Virus record (IMG/VR): IMGVR_UViG_3300028840_002499
Coordinates: 1-62,806 of that record
Strand: one strand, 5' to 3'
Origin: a virus
Lineage: Duplodnaviria; Caudoviricetes
DNA: 62,806 nt
Below the pieces are notes generated by a model, which was not told where the DNA came from, did not search any database, and was given only the letters and a program-made list of their open reading frames with translations. Shown piece by piece: positions 10,007 to 57,474 of the stretch. The position numbers were made by a program, and so were the translations under genes. How positions within the stretch are numbered: position 1 is the stretch's first letter; every line of letters starts with the position of its first letter.

Positions 10007-10161
10007 TCTCAAATACCTCCGATTTCACTACACGCAACACCGTACAACTCCAACACAGCCTAAAACACTTTTGATTTTTTCTGGCTGCAGTGTTAATGGG
10101 GACTTTTCTATATATAGCACATCGTTTCCTTTTGAAAAAGTTAGTGGGACTGGCATTGTGC

Positions 10162-11652
10162 CTAGTGGATGCTGATACGATTATACACCACCTCTTGAAC
10201 ATCATCACCAGTAGTGAGCCAACCAATGAGATAGCGGAGTGCATCGGGCAAGTGCCATATATCCTTGTCCTCGATCTTGTCGGTGAGATTACCATGCCGA
10301 TCTTCTAATCTCTTCATCACACCCAGGTCAGCGATGAGCCGAGGGCAAGAGTCATGGATGACCATCGACTCTTCTTTGAACAGTGCGTATACCTTTCTGA
10401 TCTGTGACCATACATCACTAACAGGGCAAGCACCCATCGGGAGGCCAGCACCAGTCCAGTCAACCCTTGCTTGTCTCTCACTTGGGCCACCACCAATGAC
10501 CCGAAGGATTTCCCCATCCTCAGCGCAAGCACGAAGGATTTCTACAACATGACCACGAGTGGTGCGACCGAAGGGCTGTTCATACTCACGGTACACATGC
10601 AATCGCTCTGTATCAGGATCAAAGGCAACCCATATAGCTGCGGTCATCTGTCCGATTGGATCAACACCAATAAGACCCTTGGGCCATTCCTTGGGGATGG
10701 GATGGGATGGGATAACATGAGTGGTACTGTCGAATACATCATAGATGAGGGAGCGAAGTTTGGCAGTGATGCCCCTGTAGAACATATCAAACTCATCAGC
10801 GGCTAGTTTACTCCTAGCATCCTCGAACTCTTCGATTGAGAACATGGGGTTGAGTACTGAATCGTATTGAACTAGGGTGACACTCTGATCCTCATTCTCA
10901 GTATGGGTCAATTCGGCGTGACCAACAGTATGCTTGTGAACCTTGCCGCCTTTCCTAGCAGGGTCAATGATCTGAGACTTCACCCACCCCAGATTGTAGA
11001 GAGTGGTGGTTAGGAGTTGACGGCCCCTGAACAGGGACAAGCGGCGAATGATAGCTTGGTATGCCTTGAGGGTGAATTCGTCTTGACCAGCCTCGTCCAA
11101 CCATGCAGCACGAGCAGTTGCAGATTCCAACCCGCCCATAGCACTAGCGGAGCGGAGAATGATCCTGCCCCACATTTTGTCTGTTGACTTGCTTGCCCAG
11201 AACTCGCCAGTTTCAGGATCGCATAGCTCAATGATCTTGTCACCTAACCAATAGCGACCACGGCCCAAGATGTTCTCAAAAACTCGTAACATCTCTGGCA
11301 GCATTTTCAGCTTGAACAAGTCGTATGATGAAGTGACGGCAATGTAGTCGTTTCCTCCATCTGGAGATGCAGTTCTGTCAATTTCGGAGTTCAACCACCA
11401 CGGCCCCCAGGATGTCTTACCAGATTGAGTTCCAGCGATTAGTGCAATGATGCGACTGGTGCTGTCGTACCCAATATTCTGCGCCAAGTGAAACGGTACA
11501 GGATCACCATCAAGCCCGATCAAGTGACGTTCAGGCCACTGTTTGACCTTAGCCTTCATCCTGGTCTTGTTCGCAGTGGCAGTCCGGTACTTGCTGACGG
11601 CCCTCCGATAGCGTGCCCCATCAAGTGTACTCAAATCAGGTTGCTGAGTCAT
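10162..11652 (-). CDS. terL: Terminase large subunit
   Basis: Walker A 'AGTQSGKT', Walker B 'AWLDEAG', nuclease 'GVDP' and 'HLPDALRY'. Confidence 0.93.
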   Translation of the reverse strand: MTQQPDLSTLDGARYRRAVSKYRTATANKTRMKAKVKQWPERHLIGLDGDPVPFHLAQNIGYDSTSRIIALIAGTQSGKTSWGPWWLNSEIDRTASPDGGNDYIAVTSSYDLFKLKMLPEMLRVFENILGRGRYWLGDKIIELCDPETGEFWASKSTDKMWGRIILRSASAMGGLESATARAAWLDEAGQDEFTLKAYQAIIRRLSLFRGRQLLTTTLYNLGWVKSQIIDPARKGGKVHKHTVGHAELTHTENEDQSVTLVQYDSVLNPMFSIEEFEDARSKLAADEFDMFYRGITAKLRSLIYDVFDSTTHVIPSHPIPKEWPKGLIGVDPIGQMTAAIWVAFDPDTERLHVYREYEQPFGRTTRGHVVEILRACAEDGEILRVIGGGPSERQARVDWTGAGLPMGACPVSDVWSQIRKVYALFKEESMVIHDSCPRLIADLGVMKRLEDRHGNLTDKIEDKDIWHLPDALRYLIGWLTTGDDVQEVVYNRISIH

Positions 11653-14420: not shown

Positions 14421-14500
14421 AAATTAGTACTTGACATAAACCTATACTATTTGATATAATATTTATATCAGATAATCACTTTTTGAAATCGGAGAAAATT
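14421..14500 (+). promoter_or_regulatory. Promoter-operator-RBS module 1
   Basis: AAATTAGTAC-TTGACA-18-TATAAT, TATCAGATAA, TCGGAGAAAA. Confidence 0.8.
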
Positions 14501-15189: not shown

Positions 15190-15259
15190 AAATTAGTACT
15201 TGACAAAACCTATACCATTTGATATAATATTATTAAATCGAGATCAAATGGAGAAAAAA
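15190..15259 (+). promoter_or_regulatory. Promoter-RBS module 2
   Basis: AAATTAGTAC-TTGACA-17-TATAAT ... GGAGAAAA. Confidence 0.8.
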
Positions 15260-19406: not shown

Positions 19407-19793
19407 GTTGGTTGGACTCTTTCAGGAGAAAGCAATGAGCAATAAATATGCTGAAATGAAATGTGAAGGTGCTTGCGAAAAACACGTTGGAGAAATTGTC
19501 CACGTGCAGGTTATTAGCCCAAAAGGATACGACTGGGGTGATTTTTTGTACTGCGAAGAAGCGGTAGCCGAAGACAGGCGGCGTGATTTCACTGTGCGCC
19601 ACCTAACCACCAATGCAACGGAATTGACTAAACGCTGCGTGCAACCCTAGAATTATGGCGGTGTTTCATGTGGCCGAGAAAGCTATAGAAAAAATGATGG
19701 CTACTTGCTCGCCGTACGGTCATCAGGTTGGCGAAGATGCATTGCAAGAAATCAAAGATTTACTAACACCGCCAAGCCGGTGATTATAGTTCG
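19407..19793 (+). mobile_element. Solo gene cassette (locus 2)
   Basis: Begins GTTGGTTGGACTC (identical to the cassette start at 31569), carries an ORF, ends in an attC-like site. Confidence 0.6.
19435..19650 (+). CDS. Cassette-borne small Cys-containing protein
   Basis: AGGAG RBS; MSNKYAEMKCEGAC... Confidence 0.6.
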   Translation: MSNKYAEMKCEGACEKHVGEIVHVQVISPKGYDWGDFLYCEEAVAEDRRRDFTVRHLTTNATELTKRCVQP

Positions 19794-19799
19794 TTAGAG
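19601..19799 (+). other. attC-like recombination site (long)
   Basis: R'' ACCTAAC, L'' AAT(G)CA / L' TGATT, ATAGTTC spacer, R' GTTAGAG; inner stem TGGCGGTGTT/AACACCGCCA. Confidence 0.7.
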
Positions 19800-19987: not shown

Positions 19988-19996
19988 TATTTTTTT

Positions 19997-20071
19997 AATT
20001 TAGTACTTGACATTTTACGATAAATGTATATAATTAGGTTATCAGATAATCACATTCAATCGGAGAAAAAA
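19997..20071 (+). promoter_or_regulatory. Promoter-operator-RBS module 3
   Basis: AATTTAGTAC-TTGACA-16-TATAAT, GTTATCAGATAAT, TCGGAGAAAA. Confidence 0.8.
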
Positions 20072-20617
20072 ATGTCTAAAAAATGTACAAACCCTTTTCT
20101 TGAATCAGATGGATTTTGCACAAGATGTAGTGAGTACCATTTCAAAACAAATAAAAGAGGGGACGTTTTGACCACAAGGAAACCCACAATAAATAAACGA
20201 GAAAAATTACAAGCTGAAAAATCAGCCAGCATTCAGAGAACCATTGAAAATACTCCTCAGTATAAAGTAGCCAAAGAGACGGTTGAAATGTTGTCTGAAA
20301 TTTATGACATCCAAGTGAAAATTGTTTTTACGAATTTACAAGCTAGTTATCACATTAAAAGGAAAACTGGACACGTAATTAAATTTGGTTATCAGTCTTT
20401 GGATCGATCTTTTGAAAATGGGTTTGACGAGTACAAAATCTTACAATGGATGATCAACTACAAGAAAATTGATGGTATTGAAGGTGCAAGGCAAGAGGCA
20501 ATGCACGAGTTTTCACACGTTTTACAAACTGAAATCCCAGGTGGCAGAACTTACGGTTCATGCCACAACGAAACTTTCATCAAGTGCTACCAGGAAGTTA
20601 TGGAGTTGGTGAACTAA
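20072..20617 (+). CDS. Zincin/SprT-like metalloprotease
   Basis: HEFSH (HExxH) plus downstream 'H...F'. Confidence 0.6.
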   Translation: MSKKCTNPFLESDGFCTRCSEYHFKTNKRGDVLTTRKPTINKREKLQAEKSASIQRTIENTPQYKVAKETVEMLSEIYDIQVKIVFTNLQASYHIKRKTGHVIKFGYQSLDRSFENGFDEYKILQWMINYKKIDGIEGARQEAMHEFSHVLQTEIPGGRTYGSCHNETFIKCYQEVMELVN

Positions 20618-27170: not shown

Positions 27171-28151
27171 ATGAAAACGATTGGAGTGGATATTGGCTAT
27201 TATGCGACAAAGGCAGTATGTGGAAAAAAGGTAGTCACCTTCCCATCTGTTGCTGGAACGCCGAATGTATCACAGTTAGTTCATGGTGTTGGTGATGGAG
27301 AGACTATCATCAATCTTGGTATCGGTGATAGTTACAAGTATATTGTTGGTCGGGATGCTATTTTGAAATCCAGATCAACAGAGCGAAGAGAGGAGCGGGA
27401 GTGGATCACATCTCACCTCTGGAAAGTTCTTTTTTATCACGCTATTAGTCAGCTTGAGCCGGAAGGTGGGGAGTTCAGAATTGTTACTGGACTTCCAGTT
27501 GACTATTTCAGTTCAGATCATGTGATGCTCAAAAAGATTGTTGAAGGGTTGCACAAGTTCGCAGTGAACGACAAGAGACTGGAACTCCGTCTTTCGTCAA
27601 TAGTCACGATGCAACCATTCGGAGCAGTCTGCAATGAAATTCTGTCATTCGATGGAAACCTGAAAAATAAGTCATTGTCTCAGTCCAGTATTGGTGTTAT
27701 CGATATTGGCGGGAAAACGACAAACATCTTAACGGTTGACCAGATGGCAGATATTGGAGCGCAGTCATTCAGTACCGATACTGGAGGATGGGATATTGTT
27801 CGTGCTGTGAAAACATCCATCCAAGAAAAGTTCTTTGACTACGAATTGAAAGATCATGAAGTTGCAGAGATTGTCGCATCGAAAACCATGAAACGGTTTG
27901 GTAAGGATGTTGACGTTTCTGATCTAGTTGAGCCGGTGACAGATTCAATCACCAGAGAGATAGTTGCACTCACGACCCAGGTATGGGGTAATGCGAGTGG
28001 ACTGGACAAGATTTTCATCTCTGGTGGCGGTGCAAACCTGATCGGTGAAACCATTGCTGATGAATTTCCTCATGCAGTTGTAGTCAGTGATCCAGAAGTT
28101 GCTAATGCGAAAGGGTATTACAAGTATGGGAAATTCATCGAAAAAATCTAG
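27171..28151 (+). CDS. parM: ParM/StbA-family actin-like ATPase
   Basis: 'GVDIGYYATK', 'VTGLP', 'QPFGA', 'VIDIGGKTT', 'SGGGA', 'ANAKGY'. Confidence 0.88.
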   Translation: MKTIGVDIGYYATKAVCGKKVVTFPSVAGTPNVSQLVHGVGDGETIINLGIGDSYKYIVGRDAILKSRSTERREEREWITSHLWKVLFYHAISQLEPEGGEFRIVTGLPVDYFSSDHVMLKKIVEGLHKFAVNDKRLELRLSSIVTMQPFGAVCNEILSFDGNLKNKSLSQSSIGVIDIGGKTTNILTVDQMADIGAQSFSTDTGGWDIVRAVKTSIQEKFFDYELKDHEVAEIVASKTMKRFGKDVDVSDLVEPVTDSITREIVALTTQVWGNASGLDKIFISGGGANLIGETIADEFPHAVVVSDPEVANAKGYYKYGKFIEKI

Positions 28152-28329
28152 TCAGAAACCGGATGCACTGGCAGTTGCTCAAGTTTTCATTGACGAACTG
28201 AGAACGGCAAGAGAACAGTTAGACAGGATCGAGTCGAAACTTGATAAACTGTTGGATAGTGAACCGGAAGTGGAAAAAGTTAGCGTGGATGAAGAAGTTT
28301 TGAGTAATATGCTGAAAGCAGGAGTGTGA
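28126..28329 (+). CDS. Small coiled-coil protein downstream of ParM (possible adaptor)
   Basis: Overlaps the parM 3' end. Confidence 0.45.
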   Translation: MGNSSKKSSQKPDALAVAQVFIDELRTAREQLDRIESKLDKLLDSEPEVEKVSVDEEVLSNMLKAGV

Positions 28330-28808
28330 TTATGGATGACAAAAGAATAGTAGAAGAGATTTCGTTTGATGAACCAGTTGTTCCCGAACCGGATGTACCA
28401 GCAGAGAGTGAACCGGAATTCTACACAATTTCAGAGGCAGCGACATTGTTGGATATGACCTACGATGCAGTTTATCGGAGGGTGAACAGGAAGTCACTCA
28501 GAGCCGAAATGGTAGACGGTGTTTGGTTGATTTCATCTGTTGACCTTCACGAAATACGGCACGTGAGATCAACCAACGGAATCAACCGAGTGACAGCAAA
28601 TGTGTCCAACGAACTCTATGCGGTGCTGAAAGCGCATGGTCACAAGATCAACCAGAGCGCATTGTTTGAGGCTGGAATGTGGATGCTGTTAGCAGAGTTT
28701 GTTCCAGATGTTTCCTATGAGTATGCAACTAATCAAGCAAGAAAATCGATTGGTCAATCTGAGATCATCAATAGTGCATCCGAAACACTGACAGCAATTC
28801 TGGGTTAG
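28326..28808 (+). CDS. HTH DNA-binding protein
   Basis: 'YTISEAATLL....AVYRRV...L.A....G.WLI' HTH_17-like; possible RHH-like second half. Confidence 0.65.
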   Translation: MIMDDKRIVEEISFDEPVVPEPDVPAESEPEFYTISEAATLLDMTYDAVYRRVNRKSLRAEMVDGVWLISSVDLHEIRHVRSTNGINRVTANVSNELYAVLKAHGHKINQSALFEAGMWMLLAEFVPDVSYEYATNQARKSIGQSEIINSASETLTAILG

Positions 28809-28811
28809 TCT

Positions 28812-28843
28812 GGTGGGGTGGGGAAATCTCACCCCACTTTCCT
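28812..28843 (+). terminator. Rho-independent terminator
   Basis: GTGGGGTG/CACCCCAC followed by TTTCCTT. Confidence 0.6.
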
Positions 28844-28845
28844 TG

Positions 28846-28920
28846 AAATTAGTGCTTGACATTTTACCCAATTTGTATATAATATAAGTATCAGATAACC
28901 TTATTTTTTCGGAGAGAAAA
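28846..28920 (+). promoter_or_regulatory. Promoter-operator-RBS module 4
   Basis: AAATTAGTGC-TTGACA-16-TATAAT, TATCAGATAAC, TCGGAGAGAAAA. Confidence 0.8.
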
Positions 28921-29328
28921 ATGTCAGAAACCTATGTTATAGCAAAAGATAAATCAATCAGGGCAAGAGTTTATGCCCGTTACTGCATGGCAGCCTACAA
29001 TCGGGCGAAATCGTGCGGGAAATTTGAGATCAAAAGAGTGCATCGTGCTTTTGGGTTGGCATTCAAAGAGTTGACCACTGGTGAAACTCCAGATTACCAG
29101 ACCACCATGAAGTCATGCACTTGCAAGGATTACCAACTAGGAAAGCGGTGGAATCGTGGTTTCTGCAAGCACATGATTGCAAAGATGATTGTTCGCAGGG
29201 CAAAAGATTATATGCACGATGAGCACATGAAAGTTATTCGTGAGAAAAAAGCGGAAGAGGAAAAGGAACGGAAGAGGCTAGTTGCCTTTCAAATTGAACT
29301 ACGGCGAAAAGCATTGGAGTTGGGATAA
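28921..29328 (+). CDS. SWIM zinc-finger protein
   Basis: CTC.D......CKH. Confidence 0.75.
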   Translation: MSETYVIAKDKSIRARVYARYCMAAYNRAKSCGKFEIKRVHRAFGLAFKELTTGETPDYQTTMKSCTCKDYQLGKRWNRGFCKHMIAKMIVRRAKDYMHDEHMKVIREKKAEEEKERKRLVAFQIELRRKALELG

Positions 29329-29362
29329 TTAGAACTGGCAACCAAGTTGCTAACTGGAGAGA

Positions 29363-29836
29363 TTGAAAATGCTATACGATAGACTTGTAAAAAGTACAGA
29401 AGATGACCTGAAAATGAGTCTGATAAGGATCGAGAAAAAGTCAAAGTTTTTCAAGGCAGTTACAAGGAAATTGCCACCGTATTTCCCTCATTCGTTGGAT
29501 GATTTTGAAAATCTAGATGGTTATTCGTTTTTCTGGAACTGCTATGTAGATGAAGTTTCCTTGTACATTATCATGCCTTGGATACCAAAAAAGTTTGATG
29601 AAATATGTCTTTTACTAGAACTCTTTGGTTGGGAGTTCGAAAGTGAGCGCAAGGAAACAAACGGTTATCCTGAGTACTATCGATACTACCGTCACCCTGC
29701 AGTTCCAAAAGTGAAAGTCACTGTAAACATGGAAAGTGAAAAAGAGCAGTCAACCTGCGAGTTAGTTGTTGATCGAATTGAACTAGTTGAAAAACCAGTG
29801 TATAAAGTTCAGTGTTCGGATAGCACTGACATATAA
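29363..29836 (+). CDS. Hypothetical protein
   Basis: GGAG RBS. Confidence 0.6.
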   Translation: MKMLYDRLVKSTEDDLKMSLIRIEKKSKFFKAVTRKLPPYFPHSLDDFENLDGYSFFWNCYVDEVSLYIIMPWIPKKFDEICLLLELFGWEFESERKETNGYPEYYRYYRHPAVPKVKVTVNMESEKEQSTCELVVDRIELVEKPVYKVQCSDSTDI

Positions 29837-29852
29837 AAGGAGATTTTGAAAT

Positions 29853-30260
29853 ATGATTGACAGGGAGAACAATTGTAAGAGTTGTGAAATCAAGTTCCGT
29901 TATTACATGCTCCAACCTGGGGATGCAACACGGTACGAGATCGGGATTGCCCCATTACCGGCAAGTGCGAGTGGAGTTGTAAGGGGAACTGGCAATGAAA
30001 AGACCACACAAGAGTACGTTATGATCCTTGTGTCAATGCCAAGTGGCAGTGGAGTGACTATAGTCTCAAAAACCGCTTTGAAGCACGATGTTGATACGGG
30101 ACATTTACTTGGTTACGCAATGTCTCACGGATTCGCTGATGTCCACGAATGGACGGCCTGTGCAGCCTTACTTGCTGCGAGTGTCTTGACATTCGATCCT
30201 GATGACATCAACGGTGCTTGCGAGGCAATGCTAAAAACAGTGGAGGTTCTAGCACAATGA
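29853..30260 (+). CDS. Hypothetical protein
   Basis: AAGGAG RBS. Confidence 0.6.
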   Translation: MIDRENNCKSCEIKFRYYMLQPGDATRYEIGIAPLPASASGVVRGTGNEKTTQEYVMILVSMPSGSGVTIVSKTALKHDVDTGHLLGYAMSHGFADVHEWTACAALLAASVLTFDPDDINGACEAMLKTVEVLAQ

Positions 30261-30400
30261 AAACGACACGGCACAAACTAACAGTGATAATTGTCATAGT
30301 CCTCATGCTGTTGACAGGGTGTAAAATAAAGAAAACACCTCACAACGGGCTAGGTACTCCGTTCCCAACATTGGAACCATCAGTAGTGGAAGGATTGTAA
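30257..30400 (+). CDS. Small lipoprotein
   Basis: Signal peptide with lipobox LTGC; GGAGG RBS. Confidence 0.55.
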   Translation: MKTTRHKLTVIIVIVLMLLTGCKIKKTPHNGLGTPFPTLEPSVVEGL

Positions 30401-30636
30401 TGACAGAAAACGGTAAAGGTCTTTACAGACTCACCAACCGGCAAGAGCAAGTTATCAAGCTAATGTGCGAAGGATCAACACAAACGGAAGTTGCAAAGAC
30501 CCTGTGCGTCACATACGGTACAATAAAAAATCACCTGCAGCTTGCTAAAAAGAGAACCGGTATCAAGACATCTTGGCAGTTGTGTGCAGAGTGGGCAAGA
30601 TGGGACGAGCGCAAGAAACTGAGAATCACGGCATGA
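30400..30636 (+). CDS. LuxR C-terminal HTH regulator
   Basis: 'LTNRQEQVIKL..EG....EVA..L.V...TIKNHL....K'. Confidence 0.85.
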   Translation: MTENGKGLYRLTNRQEQVIKLMCEGSTQTEVAKTLCVTYGTIKNHLQLAKKRTGIKTSWQLCAEWARWDERKKLRITA

Positions 30637-30649
30637 ACCGGAGGCGGGT

Positions 30650-30777
30650 GGCTGGCGTTTTTTGCCAGAGCAGATAAGGGACGAGTGTCAAGGGCATGTT
30701 CCGTAGGAATTTTTAGCCGAAGGCTAAAAACCCTTGCACACTCTAAGTCCCGCTCTGCTATACTGGCAGAGCCAGCC
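30650..30777. repeat. Long branched palindromic element (GTCAAGGG...CCCTTGCAC), copy 2
   Basis: Nested pairs GGCTGGC/GCCAGCC, TGCCAG/CTGGCA, AGCAGA/TCTGCT, GGGAC/GTCCC, GAGTGT/ACACTC, with two apical hairpins. Confidence 0.7.
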
Positions 30778-30854
30778 TTGAGCCGATGAAGGGTTGAACC
30801 GATATATATCGGTTCGCTTAAATCATAGTTAGAAAGAATTGCTAGGAGAATACC

Positions 30855-31187
30855 ATGCAATCAATAGAGCAAGCAAAGTGGCTTTCGTTGGCAGTCTCAG
30901 CTGCACTAAAAGAGTTGCGAAAAGATTGGCCCACAAAGCAGATAGACGAAAGTGAAGTTTCATTCCGGTTCAAATCCGTTGAAGGTGTGCTAATCATGGC
31001 ACTAAATGAAGCACATGCCTTGGTAGAAGAATGGGAAGCAATAGAGAGCAGCCCAACTACGTGTGAAACAGACTCACCTAACGCGGTGCAAAAAATCAAC
31101 ACGGTTTGCCAGGGTTCCAATCATAGTCGGCGGGCTTGTGAGTTCAATCGTTGGGCGGACGCGTTCTGCAAGGAGTTGAAATGCTAA
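30855..31187 (+). CDS. Cassette ORF 1 (reads through the attC-like hairpin)
   Basis: AGGAG RBS after GTTAGAA at 30828. Confidence 0.55.
   Translation: MQSIEQAKWLSLAVSAALKELRKDWPTKQIDESEVSFRFKSVEGVLIMALNEAHALVEEWEAIESSPTTCETDSPNAVQKINTVCQGSNHSRRACEFNRWADAFCKELKC
31051..31156 (+). other. attC-like site (ambiguous right end; alternative R' GTTCTGC at 31163)
   Basis: GCCCAAC/GTTGGGC, TGAA/TTCA, ACTCAC/GTGAGT. Confidence 0.45.
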
Positions 31188-31408
31188 AAGACAGAATTCA
31201 AACATGGGAAAATGCAGTCATAAGAACAGAAGAAAGAATATCTAAACTTTCCGAACTCTTAGAATCTATTGGCAAATCTCACATAAACGAACTTACCCCG
31301 CAAGAATTGTTCGCCGCCCAACTCCAAGTGCAGGGGAATAGCTACGCTATGGGAAACGCAGCCGATGTAGACGAATCAAATTGGACTGCAAATAATGTCA
31401 CGGGTTAG
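31181..31408 (+). CDS. Cassette ORF 2
   Basis: AGGAGTTGAAATG start (same as at 32290); stops 13 nt before R''. Confidence 0.6.
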   Translation: MLKDRIQTWENAVIRTEERISKLSELLESIGKSHINELTPQELFAAQLQVQGNSYAMGNAADVDESNWTANNVTG

Positions 31409-31420
31409 CAACGCCATACC

Positions 31421-31575
31421 CCTGAACATCGTTAGTTAACTCGGAATGGTGATGAGCGGGGCCGAGTCGACGGTAACGGGTAGTTGGCGCTTCAGTGTTA
31501 GGTCGAACACCGGCAAGATCGCGTAACTACCGGCCCCGCTCAAAACTCACCATCCGGTTATGCTCAACGTTGGTT
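31421..31575 (+). other. attC-like site (long family A)
   Basis: CCTGAAC...GTTGGTT; stems TGGTGA/TCACCA, GAGCGGGGCC/GGCCCCGCTC, GGTAGTT/AACTACC. Confidence 0.7.
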
Positions 31576-31599
31576 GGACTCGTTGGAAAGGATCGCAAC

Positions 31600-31890
31600 A
31601 TGCACACTAAAGTACAAATAATTTGCAAAAATAATAAGCCCTACGGTATCCGAGATGATGCTGGCTTCTTATTCTTCTTTACGAAAGTGAGTAAATTTCA
31701 AGGACAAGAAGAAAGATACCGCCAGGAACTTGAAGAACAGTTTACCCTTGCTGATTATCTTTTGACAGCATTGCAAGAAAGGGGCCAACCAACACCAAAT
31801 GCAGCTTATACGCCACGGCAGAAATTGGACGGTACAAATAATTCTAGTGTCCCAAACAACGGCGGCACTAATGACACGCCAACCCCCTGA
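31600..31890 (+). CDS. Cassette ORF 3 (stop codon in the attC L' box)
   Basis: AAGGA RBS; MHTKVQ...; TGA of CTGATT. Confidence 0.6.
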   Translation: MHTKVQIICKNNKPYGIRDDAGFLFFFTKVSKFQGQEERYRQELEEQFTLADYLLTALQERGQPTPNAAYTPRQKLDGTNNSSVPNNGGTNDTPTP

Positions 31891-31906
31891 TTATAGTTCG
31901 TTATGC
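31787..31906 (+). other. attC-like site (TGATTATAGTTCGTT family)
   Basis: AACCAAC-ACCA-AAT(G)CAG ... CTGATT-ATAGTTC-GTTATGC. Confidence 0.75.
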
Positions 31907-31938
31907 ACTCTATTCGCTAGAAATGAAAGGAAAAAGAG

Positions 31939-32109
31939 ATGATAAACAAGAAAAGATACGCATTCAATATTGTATTTATGCTAGTGTCAGCCATAACAAT
32001 TTTATGGGCGTATATGTTTTTTAGCCTGCCTGATCTATGGCTTGTGGTTGTGTCTATTGGTGTAGGTGGATTTATGGCATTCCTAGACCATGTGTTTTTT
32101 AATAATTAG
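31939..32109 (+). CDS. Cassette ORF 4, 2-TM membrane micro-protein (56 aa)
   Basis: MINKKRYAFNIVFMLVSAITILW...DHVFFNN*; stop is 4 nt before R''. Confidence 0.6.
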   Translation: MINKKRYAFNIVFMLVSAITILWAYMFFSLPDLWLVVVSIGVGGFMAFLDHVFFNN

Positions 32110-32112
32110 AGT

Positions 32113-32264
32113 GCATAACAAATCACAGCACACGGAATGTTGATGAACGGGGCCGAGCCGACGGTAATGGGTAGACACGACACAGGTCTAGGTCGGACGA
32201 CAGAAATCCGCGTACCTACCAGCCCCGTTCAAAACTCACCATCTGGTGTGTTCAACCGTTAAGT
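32113..32264 (+). other. attC-like site (long family A)
   Basis: GCATAAC...GTTAAGT; homologous to 31421-31575 with compensatory changes. Confidence 0.75.
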
Positions 32265-32289
32265 GTCATGTTGCCTGATAGGAGTTGAA

Positions 32290-32589
32290 ATGTACGGATA
32301 CATATTTTTGTATTTTATTCTCTGTGTGTCGTTTGCAATCGGTATGTTTGTGGGTGAATACAGGCATGAGAAGGTCAGCAAATCAACGGTCTTTTTATAC
32401 ATTGTTTTTTGTGCACTCGCAGCCCCCATTTTATTCTTTGCGTTGTTGGGTGAGTTTCTTGTTTTACAATCAAAAGTCCACCCAACCACAAATGCAGTTG
32501 ACACGCCTGCGCTGCACCGTTGCGTTGATTGTGGATCTGATTTACAACTGGTGTGCCCTGGCAAATATCAATGTCCGGCGTGCCACTGA
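32290..32589 (+). CDS. Cassette ORF 5, 2-TM protein with an attC-encoded zinc ribbon
   Basis: AGGAG RBS; C-terminus CVDC..CPAC lies inside the attC loop; stop at L' TGA. Confidence 0.6.
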   Translation: MYGYIFLYFILCVSFAIGMFVGEYRHEKVSKSTVFLYIVFCALAAPILFFALLGEFLVLQSKVHPTTNAVDTPALHRCVDCGSDLQLVCPGKYQCPACH

Positions 32590-32605
32590 TTATAGTTCGT
32601 TATAT
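32480..32605 (+). other. attC-like site (TGATTATAGTTCGTT family)
   Basis: ACCCAAC-CACA-AAT(G)CAGT..CACGCC / GGCGTG..ACTGATT-ATAGTTC-GTTATAT. Confidence 0.8.
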
Positions 32606-32617
32606 GGCAAAGCTATT

Positions 32618-32968
32618 ATGAACACCTACGAAGAGTGGAAAGTTTTTGCAAATAAACCGGGCGCAATCACAACCGTCATGTATCAAGATTGGTTGCTACA
32701 GGGTTGCCCGAAGTGCGATGGTAAAGAGTGGGAACTCACCAACGACGGTTGGGCATATTGCTGTGGGTGCAGTAAAGGCTATTCAACCAATGGTATATGG
32801 GTTCATGCGCCCTTAGTTTTCTACGACAAGAACGGGTATCACTGTTTTATGTGTCGTGGATATGGCAAGCGAGATGGGGCAACCTGTGAAGATTGCTGTG
32901 GTAGATTTACGCAACCAGAAACGCTTTGCGCTTCTAACAAATCGTTAGAGACAGACCCGCCGCAATAG
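32618..32968 (+). CDS. Cassette ORF 6, Cys-rich zinc-finger protein
   Basis: MNTYEEW...; several CxxC motifs; stops inside the attC. Confidence 0.6.
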   Translation: MNTYEEWKVFANKPGAITTVMYQDWLLQGCPKCDGKEWELTNDGWAYCCGCSKGYSTNGIWVHAPLVFYDKNGYHCFMCRGYGKRDGATCEDCCGRFTQPETLCASNKSLETDPPQ

Positions 32969-32999
32969 CGGCTTGAATAGCTCAACTCAACCGTTAGGG
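32932..32999 (+). other. Canonical-size attC site (68 bp)
   Basis: R'' TTCTAAC, 5-nt spacer, L'' GTT(A)GAG, inner GCCGC/GCGGC hairpin, L' CTCAAC, 6-nt spacer, R' GTTAGGG. Confidence 0.85.
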
Positions 33000-33008
33000 T
33001 GAATACCT

Positions 33009-33248
33009 ATGAAAATACATTACAGCACATGGAATGGCTACTACAATACAATCGCTTGTGGCAAAAAAGCGGTTGAAGCGCGAGCCGATAAATCTCTAGT
33101 CACTTGTGGCCTTTGCAAGAAAACCAATGTATTCACCCTAACTATCAATGCAAGCGACTTTGATAAATCTCGCGCAAGAAATGAATATTGCAAGCATGGC
33201 ATTGTTTTCCCGCATTGTATAACTTGCAATAGCACTCAAAGCGCTTGA
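33009..33248 (+). CDS. Cys-rich small protein (last cassette-like ORF)
   Basis: ATG 16 nt after R'; CxxC motifs. Confidence 0.6.
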   Translation: MKIHYSTWNGYYNTIACGKKAVEARADKSLVTCGLCKKTNVFTLTINASDFDKSRARNEYCKHGIVFPHCITCNSTQSA

Positions 33249-33255
33249 GTCTAAA

Positions 33256-33492
33256 ATGAGATATTTCGTCAAATGTCAATGTGGCCTCAGATCGTTTGCA
33301 TTCAATGATCGTTGTTTGCATTGCAACTATAAATTTGAGAAGTGTGATGAGTGCGAAAAGTCAATCTCTCATGATGCTGGTCACTATCCACACGATAAGG
33401 ACTGTAATCAAAAGGATGACGACATTTTACAGTGTGATTGTGACAACACAACTTGTGAACAGTGCTGTTGGGAGTGTGCCAAATTAACTTGA
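33256..33492 (+). CDS. Cys-rich small protein
   Basis: Multiple CxxC motifs. Confidence 0.55.
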   Translation: MRYFVKCQCGLRSFAFNDRCLHCNYKFEKCDECEKSISHDAGHYPHDKDCNQKDDDILQCDCDNTTCEQCCWECAKLT

Positions 33493-33517
33493 CTCTAAAA
33501 ATCCTATATGCTACAAT
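33489..33517 (+). promoter_or_regulatory. sigma70-like promoter
   Basis: TTGACT-17-(TGC)TACAAT. Confidence 0.65.
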
Positions 33518-33522
33518 GCAGT

Positions 33523-33660
33523 AGAGTTCTAGTTTTCAAGCTAGTTTCACTCCAGGTAATTTGACGATCTCTGGAGCGGGTGAGAACCTAAAGTGGTAGT
33601 TCTCCGACTATCACGTGGTTATCTGATAACTCTCCCTCTCCCAAGATCGTCAAATTATTT
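33523..33660 (+). ncRNA. Candidate structured ncRNA
   Basis: 14-bp perfect closing stem TAATTTGACGATCT/AGATCGTCAAATTA, inner GGAG.GGG.GAG/CTC.CCC.CTCC, two apical hairpins, no ORF, own promoter. Confidence 0.5.
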
Positions 33661-33740
33661 AAATTTACTCTTGACAAATTACTGAAAATGTATATAATTA
33701 TAGCTATCAGATAACCTATTTTTTTGATCGGAGAAAACCT
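33661..33740 (+). promoter_or_regulatory. Promoter-operator-RBS module 5
   Basis: TTGACA-16-TATAAT, TATCAGATAAC, TCGGAGAAAA. Confidence 0.8.
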
Positions 33741-35333
33741 ATGAAATGCCCAAACTGTGGAAAAGAAATGAAATTGCGACATCGAAGGTCAGACGGCAAT
33801 CCGTTCTGGGGATGCAGTGGATTTCCTAAATGTCGTGGAACTGCACGATACATCGAAACTCAGGAAAGACTAGATGTCAATTGGTCAGAGTACCAAGTGG
33901 CAGTTTTTGACTTCATTAAAAACGAAACTGGGAACGCAGTAGTTGAGGCGGTTGCAGGATCAGGAAAAACCACCACCATCGTTGAGGGATTGAATTACAC
34001 CCCCAAAGATAAGAGAGTTGCCTTTGTAGCTTTCAATCGGAGAATCGCAAACGAACTTGGAAAACGAGCACCAGCGCATGTTCACGTTAGCACTCTCCAC
34101 TCACTTGGTCTAAAAAACATCCGTGAACACTACGGAAAGATCAAAATTGAAAATCGGAAGTTCTGGCTAATCTGGAAGGATTACATTGCCACTGTTGACC
34201 ATCTCACCAAAGACAAACTGGATGACAACGCAGTTGTAGTCCGAGATTTAGTTGGCAAGATCAAGGCAACATTGCTTGAGCCTACTCACGATAACTTGAA
34301 TTACATTTGTGATCATTTCGGAATTCATGTAAATGGGTCAGCTAACCTGATCTTCAACGCAGTAAAAGCGGTCTTTGAAATCTCAGTCCAGATGATTGAT
34401 CAGATGGTTGATTTCGATGACATGATTTATGCTCCAGCCAGCGGGATGGTTCCTTGCCAGGAATTCGATTTCCTTTTCGTTGACGAAGCTCAAGACCTGA
34501 ATGCAGCGCAAATCTCATTTGTTCTAAACTCCCAGGCCAACGGTGGCAGAATCATTGCAGTAGGCGATAGAGCGCAGAGCATCTACGGTTTTCGGGGTGC
34601 AGATACCCAGGCAATTCCCAATCTAATTAGTGCCTTGAATGCGAAAGTTCTTCCCTTATCTATCTGCTACCGATGCCCTAAGTCTCACATCGAAATGGCA
34701 CAAGAGTTGGTTCCCACAATTGAACCATTTGAGGGCAAGGAAGTTGGTACAATCGGCAACATCTCATTTTCACAACTAATGGAAACAGTAAAACCTGGGG
34801 ATTTAGTAATGTGCAGAATCAATGCTCCATTGGTTGCACCGGCATTTGAACTCATTCGACAAGGGATTAAGGCAGTAGTTCTTGGTAGGGACATCGGTAA
34901 GGGACTGGAAACTTTGATCAAGAAAATTGCAAAGAAGGGTGGCAGCAATTCTTTACTCGATCTACTTCACGATATGAGCGAGTATCGAGATCGAGAAGTC
35001 AGCAAGTTAGTTGCTGCTAAGAAAATGGGGAGAGCCGCTAGTTTAGATGATCAAATTGAAACCATCATAGCTCTAGCAAGTGGCTGCGACACAGTTGATG
35101 AACTCTTCACCAAAATTGAAACAGTGTTTGATGATCGAGAACAGGGAGTTGTCTTTTCATCAGTTCACAAGGCAAAAGGAACTGAGGCTGATCGTACATT
35201 CATCCTACGAAATGACTTAATGCCTCACCCAATGGCAACAAGCGGGTGGCAGATTGAACAGGAACTAAATTGCCAGTATGTAGCTTATACCAGGGCAAAA
35301 GAGGAAATGTACTTTGTGAGTGGGGGCTTTTAG
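33741..35333 (+). CDS. UvrD/Rep-like SF1 helicase with N-terminal topoisomerase-type Zn ribbon
   Basis: 'CPNCG..M..R.....FWGCSGFPKC', 'AVAGSGKT', 'VDEAQD', 'VGD..QSIYGFRGA', 'HKAKG.E', 'YVAYTRAK'. Confidence 0.9.
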   Translation: MKCPNCGKEMKLRHRRSDGNPFWGCSGFPKCRGTARYIETQERLDVNWSEYQVAVFDFIKNETGNAVVEAVAGSGKTTTIVEGLNYTPKDKRVAFVAFNRRIANELGKRAPAHVHVSTLHSLGLKNIREHYGKIKIENRKFWLIWKDYIATVDHLTKDKLDDNAVVVRDLVGKIKATLLEPTHDNLNYICDHFGIHVNGSANLIFNAVKAVFEISVQMIDQMVDFDDMIYAPASGMVPCQEFDFLFVDEAQDLNAAQISFVLNSQANGGRIIAVGDRAQSIYGFRGADTQAIPNLISALNAKVLPLSICYRCPKSHIEMAQELVPTIEPFEGKEVGTIGNISFSQLMETVKPGDLVMCRINAPLVAPAFELIRQGIKAVVLGRDIGKGLETLIKKIAKKGGSNSLLDLLHDMSEYRDREVSKLVAAKKMGRAASLDDQIETIIALASGCDTVDELFTKIETVFDDREQGVVFSSVHKAKGTEADRTFILRNDLMPHPMATSGWQIEQELNCQYVAYTRAKEEMYFVSGGF

Positions 35334-35359
35334 CCCCTACTCCAGATTGGAGTAATAAG

Positions 35360-35821
35360 ATGATCGAAAAATTTGATGGTGACTATGCTTTTTTGTCTAA
35401 TTTCTATCCTGCGAATATTGAGTTTCTTGGTGATGTCTATGCAACTTCTGAACATTTGTATCAAGCTATGAAAACATTAGACTCTGCAAAGCGAAGGTTT
35501 ATTCGAGGGCAACAAACTCCAGGCAAGGCAAAAAGAGTTGGTCAAAAAATTGTATCAAGATCAGATTGGAACGAAGTCAAAGAAGAAGTAATGTTGCAAG
35601 TTATGAGAATGAAGTTTTTCCAGAACTATGATGCTGCTGTCAAATTGCTTGAAACTGGAAGTAAAATTTTAGTAGAGGGCAATAACTGGCATGATAATTT
35701 TTGGGGAATATGTGATTGCAATTATGGGAGTTGTGTTTCTTGGGAACATCCACAAAACAAACTTGGAAAAATTCTAATGCAAGTTCGCGATGAAATCAAA
35801 GTTTTTGGAATTGAAAACTAA
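35360..35821 (+). CDS. NADAR family protein
   Basis: 'FLSNFY', 'SEH.YQA.K', 'AKR.G', 'KF.Q....LL.TG...LVEGN.W.D.FWG', 'N.LG.ILM.VR'. Confidence 0.9.
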   Translation: MIEKFDGDYAFLSNFYPANIEFLGDVYATSEHLYQAMKTLDSAKRRFIRGQQTPGKAKRVGQKIVSRSDWNEVKEEVMLQVMRMKFFQNYDAAVKLLETGSKILVEGNNWHDNFWGICDCNYGSCVSWEHPQNKLGKILMQVRDEIKVFGIEN

Positions 35822-35850
35822 AGCATCCAAAAGTAATCTAAGGTGAAATT

Positions 35851-36381
35851 ATGGCTATCGATATATTCACAACCGAAGAGTTTGAAAACGCTTTACCCAG
35901 AGACAAGTCAACTAATGAACCGTTGTGGATCAAACTAGGTTGCATTTCAGGTGAATATTCTTATCTAATCCCCATCGATGACAAAGTTAGTATCATGGTT
36001 CGTTCATCGATTAGTAAGAGCGGTACAAGTGCTGACACTGGAGATGATAGTATTCGTGCATGGTTAGTTACTTATGAAACAATCGAGAAAATCACAGGAG
36101 TTGTTTACCGGAATTTCAAACCACTTGGCAGTAAGGTTTCAGAGTACACAACACGAGTACCAGGATGGGGCAAGAGATTAGTAAGTAATGAGAATTCAGT
36201 TGTTAGAACTCTTTGGAGATGGCGAAAGAAAGCGGGTGACTGCAAGCACTGTGGAACTCCTCAGGGAGTTTACAAGGTGAAAAAGAATAACCAGAATAAG
36301 GGTAGACTATTCACCAAGTGCAATCATCCAGCTTGTGCAATGAGATCGAAAACTTTTGAGTGGTTGACGGAGGTGAAGTGA
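35851..36381 (+). CDS. Protein with C-terminal GRF-type zinc finger
   Basis: 'C..C......VKK...NKGRLF.KC....C....FEW'. Confidence 0.6.
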   Translation: MAIDIFTTEEFENALPRDKSTNEPLWIKLGCISGEYSYLIPIDDKVSIMVRSSISKSGTSADTGDDSIRAWLVTYETIEKITGVVYRNFKPLGSKVSEYTTRVPGWGKRLVSNENSVVRTLWRWRKKAGDCKHCGTPQGVYKVKKNNQNKGRLFTKCNHPACAMRSKTFEWLTEVK

Positions 36382-55005: not shown

Positions 55006-55550
55006 TATGCGTCCGGTGCTGCTAAGATTGAAAAGTTGCGAACATCGAATTTTTCACCAGCAAATAGCTGGATAATTCGAGTGACCACCTTTCCGTAAGT
55101 CCAAGTTCCAGGAATTGTAGGCAATCCTTGATTGGTGAAAAATGTATTTATCCTACTCACAACTTGTGATGAAATCCTAACGTTGAATCTTACTTCTTGA
55201 TTTTCATCGTAACTGATAGAAACTAATGGTACTAACTGATCACCAGCTTGAGTGTTAATGGTTTGCAGTCTTGATGTGGAACTTGCCACTAACAGACAGA
55301 ACCAGTTCCCAAGTCTACCGATCTTTACATAACCACCGGCACGTAATGGAACTTCTATGTCGTATGGTTCACCAAACCCAACAAATGCTTGAATTGTTTC
55401 TCCAGTAGGTTCCCCGTCTTCGTCTAAAATAGGCCGTTCTTCAAAGACTGGATCACGTGCTAGAGTAGTGACTATTTCTCCAGTATCGAAGTCCAGAGCA
55501 TTCACCACATCTTGTGCAATATCTTTATGTACTAGAATGTAAGCTAACAT
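55005..55550 (-). CDS. Hypothetical protein
   Basis: Coupled ORF. Confidence 0.55.
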   Translation of the reverse strand: MLAYILVHKDIAQDVVNALDFDTGEIVTTLARDPVFEERPILDEDGEPTGETIQAFVGFGEPYDIEVPLRAGGYVKIGRLGNWFCLLVASSTSRLQTINTQAGDQLVPLVSISYDENQEVRFNVRISSQVVSRINTFFTNQGLPTIPGTWTYGKVVTRIIQLFAGEKFDVRNFSILAAPDA

Positions 55551-57472
55551 TAGAAACTCTCCAATAATTCATACTCTCCGTTTGTACCGCGGGCATAAAC
55601 AGTAAAATTGTCAACATTGTTATTAATTGACCCAGAATACACCCCATGCTTTGCAGAGACAGGCAAATTGTCATTGATTACTGCTGCTCCAATAAGCACA
55701 TCATCATAATATACACGTGCATTTTGCCCATCAAGAATTAATCTCATTTCTTTACCAGCTCCATAAACTGCACCAACAATAAGCAGATTATTTTGAACAC
55801 CGGCAATTCTCTCAGTGAGTATTACGTTCCCTCCAGAATGATATACAAACAAATAATTCAAAGTATCTGTGTATCTTGCGGTTATTCCAATAGCACCAGC
55901 AGAGCGAGTTAATTCGCCGGTTATAATTACATCATTTGACTTGCAATCAATTGCTGCAATCGATCTACTGCCATCAAGAAATGAGCAATGCAATGTATTT
56001 GCATCATAATCAAATGCTCCAATCATCTGTTCCCATTTCAATCCATCACCGCCAGCTCCAATCCCGCCAGCAATGCCCTCAGCGTGGCCTAACCCATCGC
56101 TTTCAAAGGATTCGTTCATCTTCCACCATGACCACGTTCCTGTACCAAATGTGTCGTTGAGCCATTGCTCTGTCATGGTGCCTGCATCTAAATGAGCGTG
56201 AATATCTGCCATTTGTGCAGGAGTTACCACGATGCCATAAAATAAAAGCGCATTGGAAAGCCAACCAGAAAAACTGTTTAGTGGCGTATTATTAGCTGCA
56301 CCAATAACGGTATTAGCAACATTTAAATTACCAGCCCACACTCCAGCGTTAACTGAGGGAGATCCAGCAATTTCACTACCCTCAATATAAACCCTAGATT
56401 GATTATCTGTGTCCGAACAAGTAATACCAACTGTGAATTCATTTAGTGATCCAGCTAGTATATTAGAAGTGTCTGATGATAGTACACCACCTGCTCGATA
56501 AGCAGCAGATATCGAATTAACAGCATTATTTTTGAAAACATAAATCTCATTATTAGCGTCTACATAGAGTCTAACAATACCCCTAATTACTCCATCGTTC
56601 CAAACCGCAGCAGACGGAATACGACACCGTACAATAATAGACGCTTCCTGTCCATTAAATTTGTTATTAAGATCAGCAGAGTAGATGTCACAATAAGAAT
56701 TAACCCCATCAAAAAACGCTTTCCTGGCATCCCCGCCCAGGCCCACCCGCACGTAATCGCCATCGTTCACGCTCCCATAATCCACCGCATCCGGTTCGTT
56801 CGTGGAGGCAAAGCCATCACTGAGGAGGGGCGCGGGGAGCCAGAGTTTTTGGGGAATGGTAACCTCATCCATACTCATAACATTAATGTTTGAAATAGTA
56901 GGAAAAACAGATGCAGTATTATTTATTGCAGAAATATATAATAATTTCCAACCATTTCCGCTTTCATTATAAAAATGAAATGCACCTGTTTCTCGCAATA
57001 AAACGGCAAATGAATAATAGTATAATGGGTTTACTGTTGCCACATTTTGATTTAATAGACCTCCACTATCGTAGGCCCGAAGATTAATACCTGCTGATCT
57101 AAGACTGTTTACTCCTGGTGTTGATGCCGTATCCAAGTCAAACCCAAAATAACTACTAGATGTAAAATCGCTGATAATATCTTTAAATATAATAAACCGC
57201 CCCGCCTGTCTGGTAATTGCGTCATACCAAATCCCAGGATCGCCATTAATGGCAGTTACACCCAAAGATAATCTGCCATTACCAATATCCATTTTATTGA
57301 TGGTATCCGTGACCGTTCTGGTTCCAGGCCCAGGTTCAGCAGCAGTGCCATTCACCGCACCTGGCAAGCGTGGAGTCAAGAATAAATCTCGCAGCCTATA
57401 GCCAATACGAGGTACACGGTTATGGATGCTCTTGAGTGTGCTTTTAGGTAGATTAGATCTTAAGACACCCAT
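55550..57472 (-). CDS. LamG-domain virion fibre, paralog B
   Basis: Shares conserved blocks with 57475..59388. Confidence 0.65.
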   Translation of the reverse strand: MGVLRSNLPKSTLKSIHNRVPRIGYRLRDLFLTPRLPGAVNGTAAEPGPGTRTVTDTINKMDIGNGRLSLGVTAINGDPGIWYDAITRQAGRFIIFKDIISDFTSSSYFGFDLDTASTPGVNSLRSAGINLRAYDSGGLLNQNVATVNPLYYYSFAVLLRETGAFHFYNESGNGWKLLYISAINNTASVFPTISNINVMSMDEVTIPQKLWLPAPLLSDGFASTNEPDAVDYGSVNDGDYVRVGLGGDARKAFFDGVNSYCDIYSADLNNKFNGQEASIIVRCRIPSAAVWNDGVIRGIVRLYVDANNEIYVFKNNAVNSISAAYRAGGVLSSDTSNILAGSLNEFTVGITCSDTDNQSRVYIEGSEIAGSPSVNAGVWAGNLNVANTVIGAANNTPLNSFSGWLSNALLFYGIVVTPAQMADIHAHLDAGTMTEQWLNDTFGTGTWSWWKMNESFESDGLGHAEGIAGGIGAGGDGLKWEQMIGAFDYDANTLHCSFLDGSRSIAAIDCKSNDVIITGELTRSAGAIGITARYTDTLNYLFVYHSGGNVILTERIAGVQNNLLIVGAVYGAGKEMRLILDGQNARVYYDDVLIGAAVINDNLPVSAKHGVYSGSINNNVDNFTVYARGTNGEYELLESF

Positions 57473-57474
57473 AA

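Follow-up and report, generated by a model that had tools for sequence, protein, structure and literature searches.

We analysed a complete 62,806-nt stretch of phage DNA (the window), the IMG/VR record IMGVR_UViG_3300028840_002499 (Duplodnaviria; Caudoviricetes), and focused on a run of small same-strand open reading frames (ORFs) for which a first-pass annotation had proposed six attC-type integron recombination sites. We consider it fairly probable that this region is a small CALIN, that is, a cluster of attC sites without an integrase, lying within the orphan-gene run of a lytic-type phage, and that its sites are integron-derived. We find two of the proposed sites credible, namely B (32113-32264) and S6 (32932-32999), which are located 668 nt apart on the coding strand and at ORF ends. 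A hairpin at 31421-31575 (A) would be a decayed third. The proposal of an integrase-less attC-type cluster in a complete phage therefore holds for two sites and a decayed third, not for six: S6 and B are attC-like, A is a strong hairpin only, and the stretches at 31787-31906, 32480-32605 and 31051-31156 are neither palindromes nor matches to any attC model. A CALIN consists of a minimum of two attC sites within ~4 kb with no integron integrase nearby, and this is what the region holds, provided that B is accepted as an attC site.

AttC-like geometry and model scores of S6 and B

Our attC calls rest on covariance models built here, not on IntegronFinder or HattCI. Real attC sites were taken from plasmid R100 and twelve other class 1 integron plasmid loci, in which 16 sites were delimited by constrained folding. 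Model R1 was built from 9 short class 1 attC sites, R2 from 17 rows (the 16 delimited sites plus one interrupted site) and R3 from 27 rows aligned to R2, three of which came from a scan of viral contigs with a pattern of the ends shared by B and S6. The window was searched on both strands with filters off. As a positive control, R1 returned 20 hits at E < 1e-4 in the 13 plasmid loci (230,132 bases), all within cassette arrays. Neither the dfrA1 nor the dfrA27 site was detected by R1, and the long arr-3 site reached only 16.5 bits, so that the sensitivity of this model is limited for sites unlike those of its training set. The best match in other phage loci reached 9.9 bits with R2 (71,922 bases) and 12.5 bits with R3 (85,965 bases), and the best unrelated match within the window 15.0, 15.4 and 14.9 bits with R1, R2 and R3, respectively.

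S6 (68 nt, + strand) scored 30.4 bits with R1 (E 2.1e-5), 24.7 bits with R2 (E 7.5e-4) and 31.7 bits with R3 (E 4.2e-6). It reads TTCTAAC / AAATC / GTT-A-GAG ... CTCAAC / TCAACC / GTTAGGG, corresponding to a 7-nt R'', a 5-nt spacer, L'' with a bulged base, L', a 6-nt spacer and a 7-nt R', and all six L-box pairs form. Each core departs from the RYYYAAC / GTTRRRY consensus at most once, R'' at its first base and R' at its last, and at least three of the four outer pairs form. The site had been credited with textbook attC geometry; our analysis confirms it as attC-like. When folded as single-stranded DNA (ssDNA) and compared with shuffled sequences, S6 gave z values of -2.9 (top strand) and -2.8 (bottom strand). 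S6 shares its box order, its 5- and 6-nt spacers and much of its end sequence (TCTAAC-AA.TC-GTT.. and ..AAC-TCA..C-GTTAG) with class 1 attC sites such as those of aadA1 and blaVIM-4, from which it differs in a stem that is broken by a large internal loop and predicted to fold poorly.

Site B (152 nt, + strand) has the arrangement R''-5-L''(bulged G)...L'-6-R', with R'' GCATAAC, L'' ACA-G-CAC, L' GTGTGT (6/6 pairs) and R' GTTAAGT. Its two cores are again within one departure of the consensus each, with at least three of the four outer pairs formed. B scored 11.1 bits with R1 (E 1.8), 11.2 bits with R2 (E 2) and 27.0 bits with R3 (E 8.3e-5), the last value being partly circular. It is the third-best match of R1 and R2 in the window, and the ends of every match coincide exactly with those first annotated. 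To gauge the circularity, we considered 11 viral loci with the same 19 end bases, all R2-negative: under R3 they reached 9.5-11.6 bits at the pattern positions and 14.7 bits at most, so the shared ends do not explain the 27 bits of B. The rise of B under R3 is probably due mostly to a better handling of long central inserts and to three further stem pairs. Folded as ssDNA, B gave z values of -2.1 (top) and -1.9 (bottom), so that B, like S6, folds moderately better than shuffled sequences, and its bottom-strand core (AAC/GTT) pairing probability is 0.26; the 16 real sites range from 0.038 to 0.97, with 14 of them at or above 0.2. On these models, B is a probable attC site. No match to B was found in plasmids.

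A strict R/L-box grammar, which 9 of the 16 real attC sites pass (13/16 in a relaxed version), finds exactly two matches with consensus cores in the whole window, B and S6.

Among the viral loci, one complete record of 44,643 bp with terminal repeats and without PF00589 (L036) shows a neighbouring pair of attC-model hits on one strand, at 10085-10165 and 10319-10406 (25.2 and 22.2 bits), with the R' of the first exactly complementing the R'' of the second. Two further loci, L042 and L033, also gave model hits at the pattern positions; in L038 there is a weak hit of 122 nt, away from the pattern match.

A cassette-like unit formed by ORF5 and B

The best-defined cassette-like unit spans 31901-32258 and comprises ORF5 (31939-32109, + strand; 56 aa, hydrophobic) and B. 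The R'' of B and its flank (32107-32119, ending in GCATAAC) complement 31900-31912 (+ strand, starting with GTTATGC) at 13 of 13 positions, the two stretches being the arms of a perfect inverted repeat, and B's own downstream R' fits less well. In integron arrays, a cassette opens with TTRRRY, which is complementary to the R'' of its own attC. This rule is seen in a real array (L015), where the cmlA5 R'' (GCCCAAC) complements the preceding arr-3 R' (GTTGGGC), and between the two adjacent sites of L036. The unit starts with TTATGC... and ends with ...CAACCG|TT, and the proposed insertion junction, G|TT at 31900|31901, falls within a short repeated motif after ORF4 (D3, described below). Given the 13/13 complement, the unit looks like a circle that was opened at G|TT and joined to the G|TT of D3. 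Judged from its sequence, ORF5 plus B appears to carry the junction signature expected of an integrase-mediated insertion.

An integron origin is plausible. In the most likely history, cassettes would have entered the phage genome during its replication in an integron-carrying host, whose IntI, acting in trans, would have joined a circular cassette at G|TT in the phage DNA. Alternatively, a piece of a host cassette array may have been captured by illegitimate recombination. ORF6, ORF7 and S6 would represent the next unit after 31901-32258, and the cassette genes would be transcribed passively from the phage promoter near 30735. A single large cassette starting with GTTAGAA at 30828 and ending at S6 was also considered and rejected, as this 7-mer is no commoner than chance (8 occurrences in the window, 9.6 expected).

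Hairpin A and the other proposed sites

Hairpin A (+ strand) is a GC-rich imperfect palindrome whose core (31439-31568) is 77-89% identical to that of B (32130-32256). Its right half keeps L'-6-R' (GTTATG / CTCAAC / GTTGGTT), and its left R'' and L'' boxes are not canonical. As ssDNA it folds far better than shuffled sequences (z -5.7 top, -6.2 bottom), with a core pairing probability of only 0.01-0.02, and it matches none of the three models at E <= 10. We conclude that A is a decayed paralogue of B. In the predictions, B folds moderately well into an attC structure, and S6 and A do so poorly. Sedentary chromosomal integrons, such as those with the VCRs of Vibrio, hold long and homogeneous attC families, and A and B, both ~150 nt long and closely similar to each other, recall such families; they differ in that no bacterial family member of A/B was found and in the missing left boxes of A. 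Two exact-pattern scans of viral contigs revealed no copies of hairpin A/B, and four hits in high-GC genomes, obtained with a loose gapped pattern in genome contigs, share only the specified bases and were dismissed as chance.

The three remaining proposals have no unusual fold: z values for the top and bottom strands are +1.5 and +1.9 at 31787-31906, +0.7 and -0.3 at 32480-32605, and 0.0 and +0.6 at 31051-31156, and none of them matches R1, R2 or R3 at E <= 10. The first two are the coding 3' ends of ORF4 (its last ~120 nt) and ORF6 (its last ~125 nt), which share two repeated motifs. One can read their ends as R''-4-L''(bulged G)/L'-3-R'; lacking both fold and model match, the two stretches were rejected as attC sites. 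The third, 31051-31156, has R'' and R' cores that fit by sequence alone. An R''-5-L'' / L'-5-or-6-R' spacing with a bulge is found neither in these three stretches nor in A.

The hairpins could also be RNA elements of a polycistronic transcript (RNase III sites, mRNA stabilisers or weak terminators) whose likeness to attC is convergent. A and B are long GC-rich intergenic stems in a same-strand ORF run with one upstream promoter, and A, the best-folding copy, is the one without attC boxes. Moreover, the nucleotide sequence of the hairpin is conserved, although the ORFs next to it, ORF4 and ORF6, have hardly anything in common, and attC sites may act as weak terminators, as indicated in Qi et al. 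(PMC9892861). On the other hand, Rfam searches gave no match at the gathering score in the whole window and, at E <= 10, only two chance-level matches (E 6-8) within 30600-33400, and the stems are not followed by a T-run. The RNA fold of B is weak (z -1.05), and one of the two outer-stem changes between A and B breaks a pair. A role in RNA would also leave unexplained the match of S6 to class 1 attC models, spacers included, and the 13-nt complement at the start of the ORF5 unit. We regard this explanation as unlikely.

Repeated motifs at the ends of the small ORFs

D3 (16-18 nt) has three copies in the window, at 31887-31904 (+ strand, starting at the TGA stop of ORF4), at 32586-32603 (+ strand, starting at the TGA stop of ORF6 and directly upstream of ORF7) and at 19780-19797. 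All three start with the TGA stop of a small ORF and lie 10-35 nt ahead of the following start codon. Allowing up to three mismatches, there are 4 matches in the window against 0.03 expected. Exact copies occur in two other viral contigs (L010, 1713-1730; L011, 4721-4738), where the gene context differs. A D3-like motif at 31419-31439 (+ strand), 16/21 identical to 31884-31904, lies directly upstream of A; the possibility that A is an ORF-less cassette inserted at this motif was ruled out, as R' and R'' would then overlap.

Three small ORFs share a linker (..P/L-T-T/P-N-A..) encoded by a second motif, D2 (19598-19625, 31771-31814 and 32464-32507), which always lies 120-200 nt upstream of a D3 copy, the third such D2...D3 module being at 19598-19797. 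The intervening sequence differs in all three, consisting of a low-complexity stretch, a CxxC zinc ribbon and a separate 42-aa ORF, and the D2-D3 stretch has the appearance of an exchangeable tail module. In the same samples, a contig of 284 nt matches 32491-32603 alone, at ~89% identity (12 of 113 positions differ), and its flanks do not fit 28000-36000, which indicates that the tail module of ORF6 exists in another context.

The D3 motif ends in ...GTTCG|TTA, and each of the three attC-type units lies immediately downstream of a D3 or D3-like copy. One could speculate that D3 is a docking site kept by the phage and used in double-stranded form by a host integron integrase, in the manner of attI or attG. 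We hold this idea to be distinctly improbable; if it were true, the phage would offer several cassette entry points and would tap the host cassette pool for accessory genes.

Weighing the integron origin of the cluster

Several observations weigh against an integron-derived cluster. The E-values of all three models are rough, and B is significant only with R3, where 3 of the 27 rows trace back to the B/S6 end pattern, its E-values with R1 and R2 being about 2. S6 folds poorly as an attC site, with a core pairing probability of 0.044 and a stem containing a large internal loop. Neither candidate cassette start is specifically complemented by the R'' of S6: at 30828, the complementary 7-mer is at chance frequency, and the D3 junction matches at 5 of 7 positions. 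In addition, about half of the ORF7 tail that the left half of S6 encodes is retained in P0002, the closest homologue of ORF7, so that this part of S6 may be old coding sequence. Hairpin A lacks the canonical left boxes, its CCTGAAC / GTTGGTT ends pairing only at AAC/GTT. Finally, no related site was found in bacterial genomes, plasmids or phage records, and thus no donor array is known.

The box grammar is not rare either: shuffled sequences gave 0.78 hits on average, and 55 of 300 contained at least two. One might then ask whether AAC...GTT palindromes at gene ends resemble attC sites by coincidence, all the more as the 7-mers GTTAGAA and GTTATGC are no commoner in the window than chance predicts and three of the six proposed sites are unstructured. 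Yet S6 reaches 24.7-31.7 bits, against at most 15.4 elsewhere in the window and at most 12.5 in ~86 kb of other phage loci. The two grammar hits are, moreover, only 668 nt apart and on one strand, and a perfect 13-nt complement stands at the predicted place. We consider coincidence highly unlikely.

A further point, against shuffling by an integrase, is that hairpin, D2 and D3 recur at near-constant offsets of 691, 693 and 699 nt, which points to a local duplication across the supposed crossover point. The repeats might instead be phage-internal module boundaries, with the duplicated segment and the short motifs promoting homologous or illegitimate recombination and no integron being involved. 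The third D2...D3 module, the D3 copies in two other viral contigs and the 284-nt contig that matches the ORF6 tail alone would fit such boundaries, as would the fact that the relatives of this phage are completely different upstream of the helicase. A precedent comes from the PeSL motifs of T4-type phages, which reportedly promote gene shuffling; they are described as promoter-terminator composites, with an early promoter linked to a stem-loop and repeated at module borders, and are said to act through homologous recombination. Like PeSLs, the region combines repeated short motifs and hairpins flanking small orphan genes in a variable part of a phage genome. Unlike them, its hairpins match attC models and hold no promoter-like site: a promoter scan found none inside A, B or S6, and the repeated promoter family of this phage is located elsewhere. 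Module boundaries, moreover, leave the attC-model scores and the R/L-box geometry of S6 and B unexplained, and a duplication and an integron origin are not mutually exclusive. As a full explanation, this one also appears to us improbable, and we retain the integrase-less attC cluster as our preferred reading.

A complete phage genome without a recognisable recombinase

The window has direct terminal repeats of 144 bp and an estimated completeness of 100, in line with its earlier description as a complete genome. That description had also noted the lack of a tyrosine recombinase, and six-frame searches of the whole genome agree: no match at E <= 1 was found to PF00589 (tyrosine recombinase), TIGR02249 (integron integrase) or PF00239 (serine recombinase). 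With no tyrosine recombinase detected, the region does not qualify as a complete integron, which combines intI, attI and a Pc promoter.

The phage DNA, including the region discussed here, has no match among 50,697 phage records. Its TerL has no match in phages, and the UvrD-type helicase reaches only 33-37% identity with its counterparts in Pseudomonas, Xanthomonas and Brevundimonas phages. Searches based on this helicase led to two viral and five metagenome loci. The two closest relatives are distant (69% and 66% helicase identity); they share with the region discussed here a homologue of ORF9 and otherwise nothing, and the attC models found no hit in them.

The sequence is present in two sets of DNA reads, a sediment and a seawater metagenome, which look like one data set and may be the source sample; no RNA sequencing run is listed as containing it. 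Sample contigs over 28000-36000 show no joints and no missing or inserted letters; since contigs cannot reveal rare excision, this comparison says nothing either way on excised cassettes.

Layout of the ORF run

The ORFs and repeats of the region lie where they had first been placed. ORF2-ORF9 are small same-strand ORFs, none with a Pfam or PHROG family. Besides ORF5, the run includes, all on the + strand, the orphans ORF2 (30855-31187, 110 aa), ORF3 (31181-31408, 75 aa) and ORF4 (31600-31890, 96 aa), followed by ORF6 (32290-32589, 99 aa), with a hydrophobic N-terminal part and a CxxC...CxxC tail, and by the Cys-rich ORF7 (32618-32968, 116 aa), whose C-terminal tail is encoded by the left half of S6. 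The paralogy of ORF4 and ORF6 is weak (BLASTP E 0.003 in a single comparison), with little in common beyond a short linker. ORF7 has five metagenomic homologues (62-74% identity), in which the conserved part stops before S6. The protein has no match in phages or plasmids, and a search with the ORF7 alignment found no viral locus.

The description of these ORFs as promoterless fits the promoter scan, which placed one sigma-70-like site upstream (30735-30764, + strand; TGCACA-18-TATACT with TG, 9/12 matches, a consensus match only) and a perfect TTGACA-16-TATAAT promoter downstream, ahead of the helicase (33671-33698, + strand). A terminator-like hairpin (near 30640-30670, + strand) precedes the upstream site. 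Between that site and ORF2 lies a perfect 20-nt palindrome (30796-30815) that looks like an operator, and the gene just upstream (30400-30636) encodes a 78-aa protein of the sigma-70 region 4 / LuxR-type HTH kind. A family of repeated promoter regions, 73-95% identical between copies (14421-14463, 15190-15231, 19989-20076, 28843-28925 and 33654-33737), probably marks early transcription units; its last copy contains the perfect promoter at 33671-33698. Two adjacent ORFs of ~640 aa on the - strand (55549-57472 and 57474-59388) are paralogues with 67-74% nucleotide identity in several blocks, and neither matches a PHROG. No tRNA was found.

Relation to known integrase-less clusters

The first-pass annotation had suggested a phage accessory-gene exchange system built on the host integron. 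That this would be a new kind of system is not supported, since attC clusters without an integrase have already been published for virulent phages. A screen of 10,705 phage genomes by Qi et al. 2023 (PMC9892861) yielded 17 such clusters, virulent phages included, and IntI1 recombined 5 of 6 tested sites, originating from three virulent phages, into attI1. The present region resembles those clusters: at least two sites of attC type lie on one strand amid small ORFs, and the phage has no integrase. In its marine setting it is reminiscent of their Pseudoalteromonas and Polaribacter phages, and the proposed cassette traffic via phages is the same. The phage described here differs in being uncultivated, in having no DNA match to phage records and in the low identity of its helicase (33-37%) to those of isolates.

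In the definition of Cury et al. 2016 (bioRxiv 10.1101/030866), a CALIN comprises at least two attC sites without a nearby integrase, and insertion at secondary sites is named as one of its origins. Loot et al. (bioRxiv 10.1101/2022.09.11.507474) described efficient cassette insertion outside att sites. The ORF5 unit is similar to such insertions: it is a cassette-like unit on its own, joined at G|TT and with neither attI nor intI in its vicinity, and a neighbouring promoter would drive its expression. Their insertions, in contrast, are in bacterial chromosomes, and the right-hand CRGM motif (positions 6-9) that they describe is absent from the junctions found here.

What this phage would add is an uncultivated complete genome, a long attC-type pair of the chromosomal-integron kind (B and its decayed paralogue A) and a junction at a repeated phage motif that looks as if an integrase had inserted the unit directly into the phage DNA. 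Were the sites active, such a lytic phage of marine origin could acquire, carry and pass on integron cassettes without a recombinase of its own. Such cassette traffic, the principle of which was shown in 2023 for isolated phages, would link two major routes of gene exchange.

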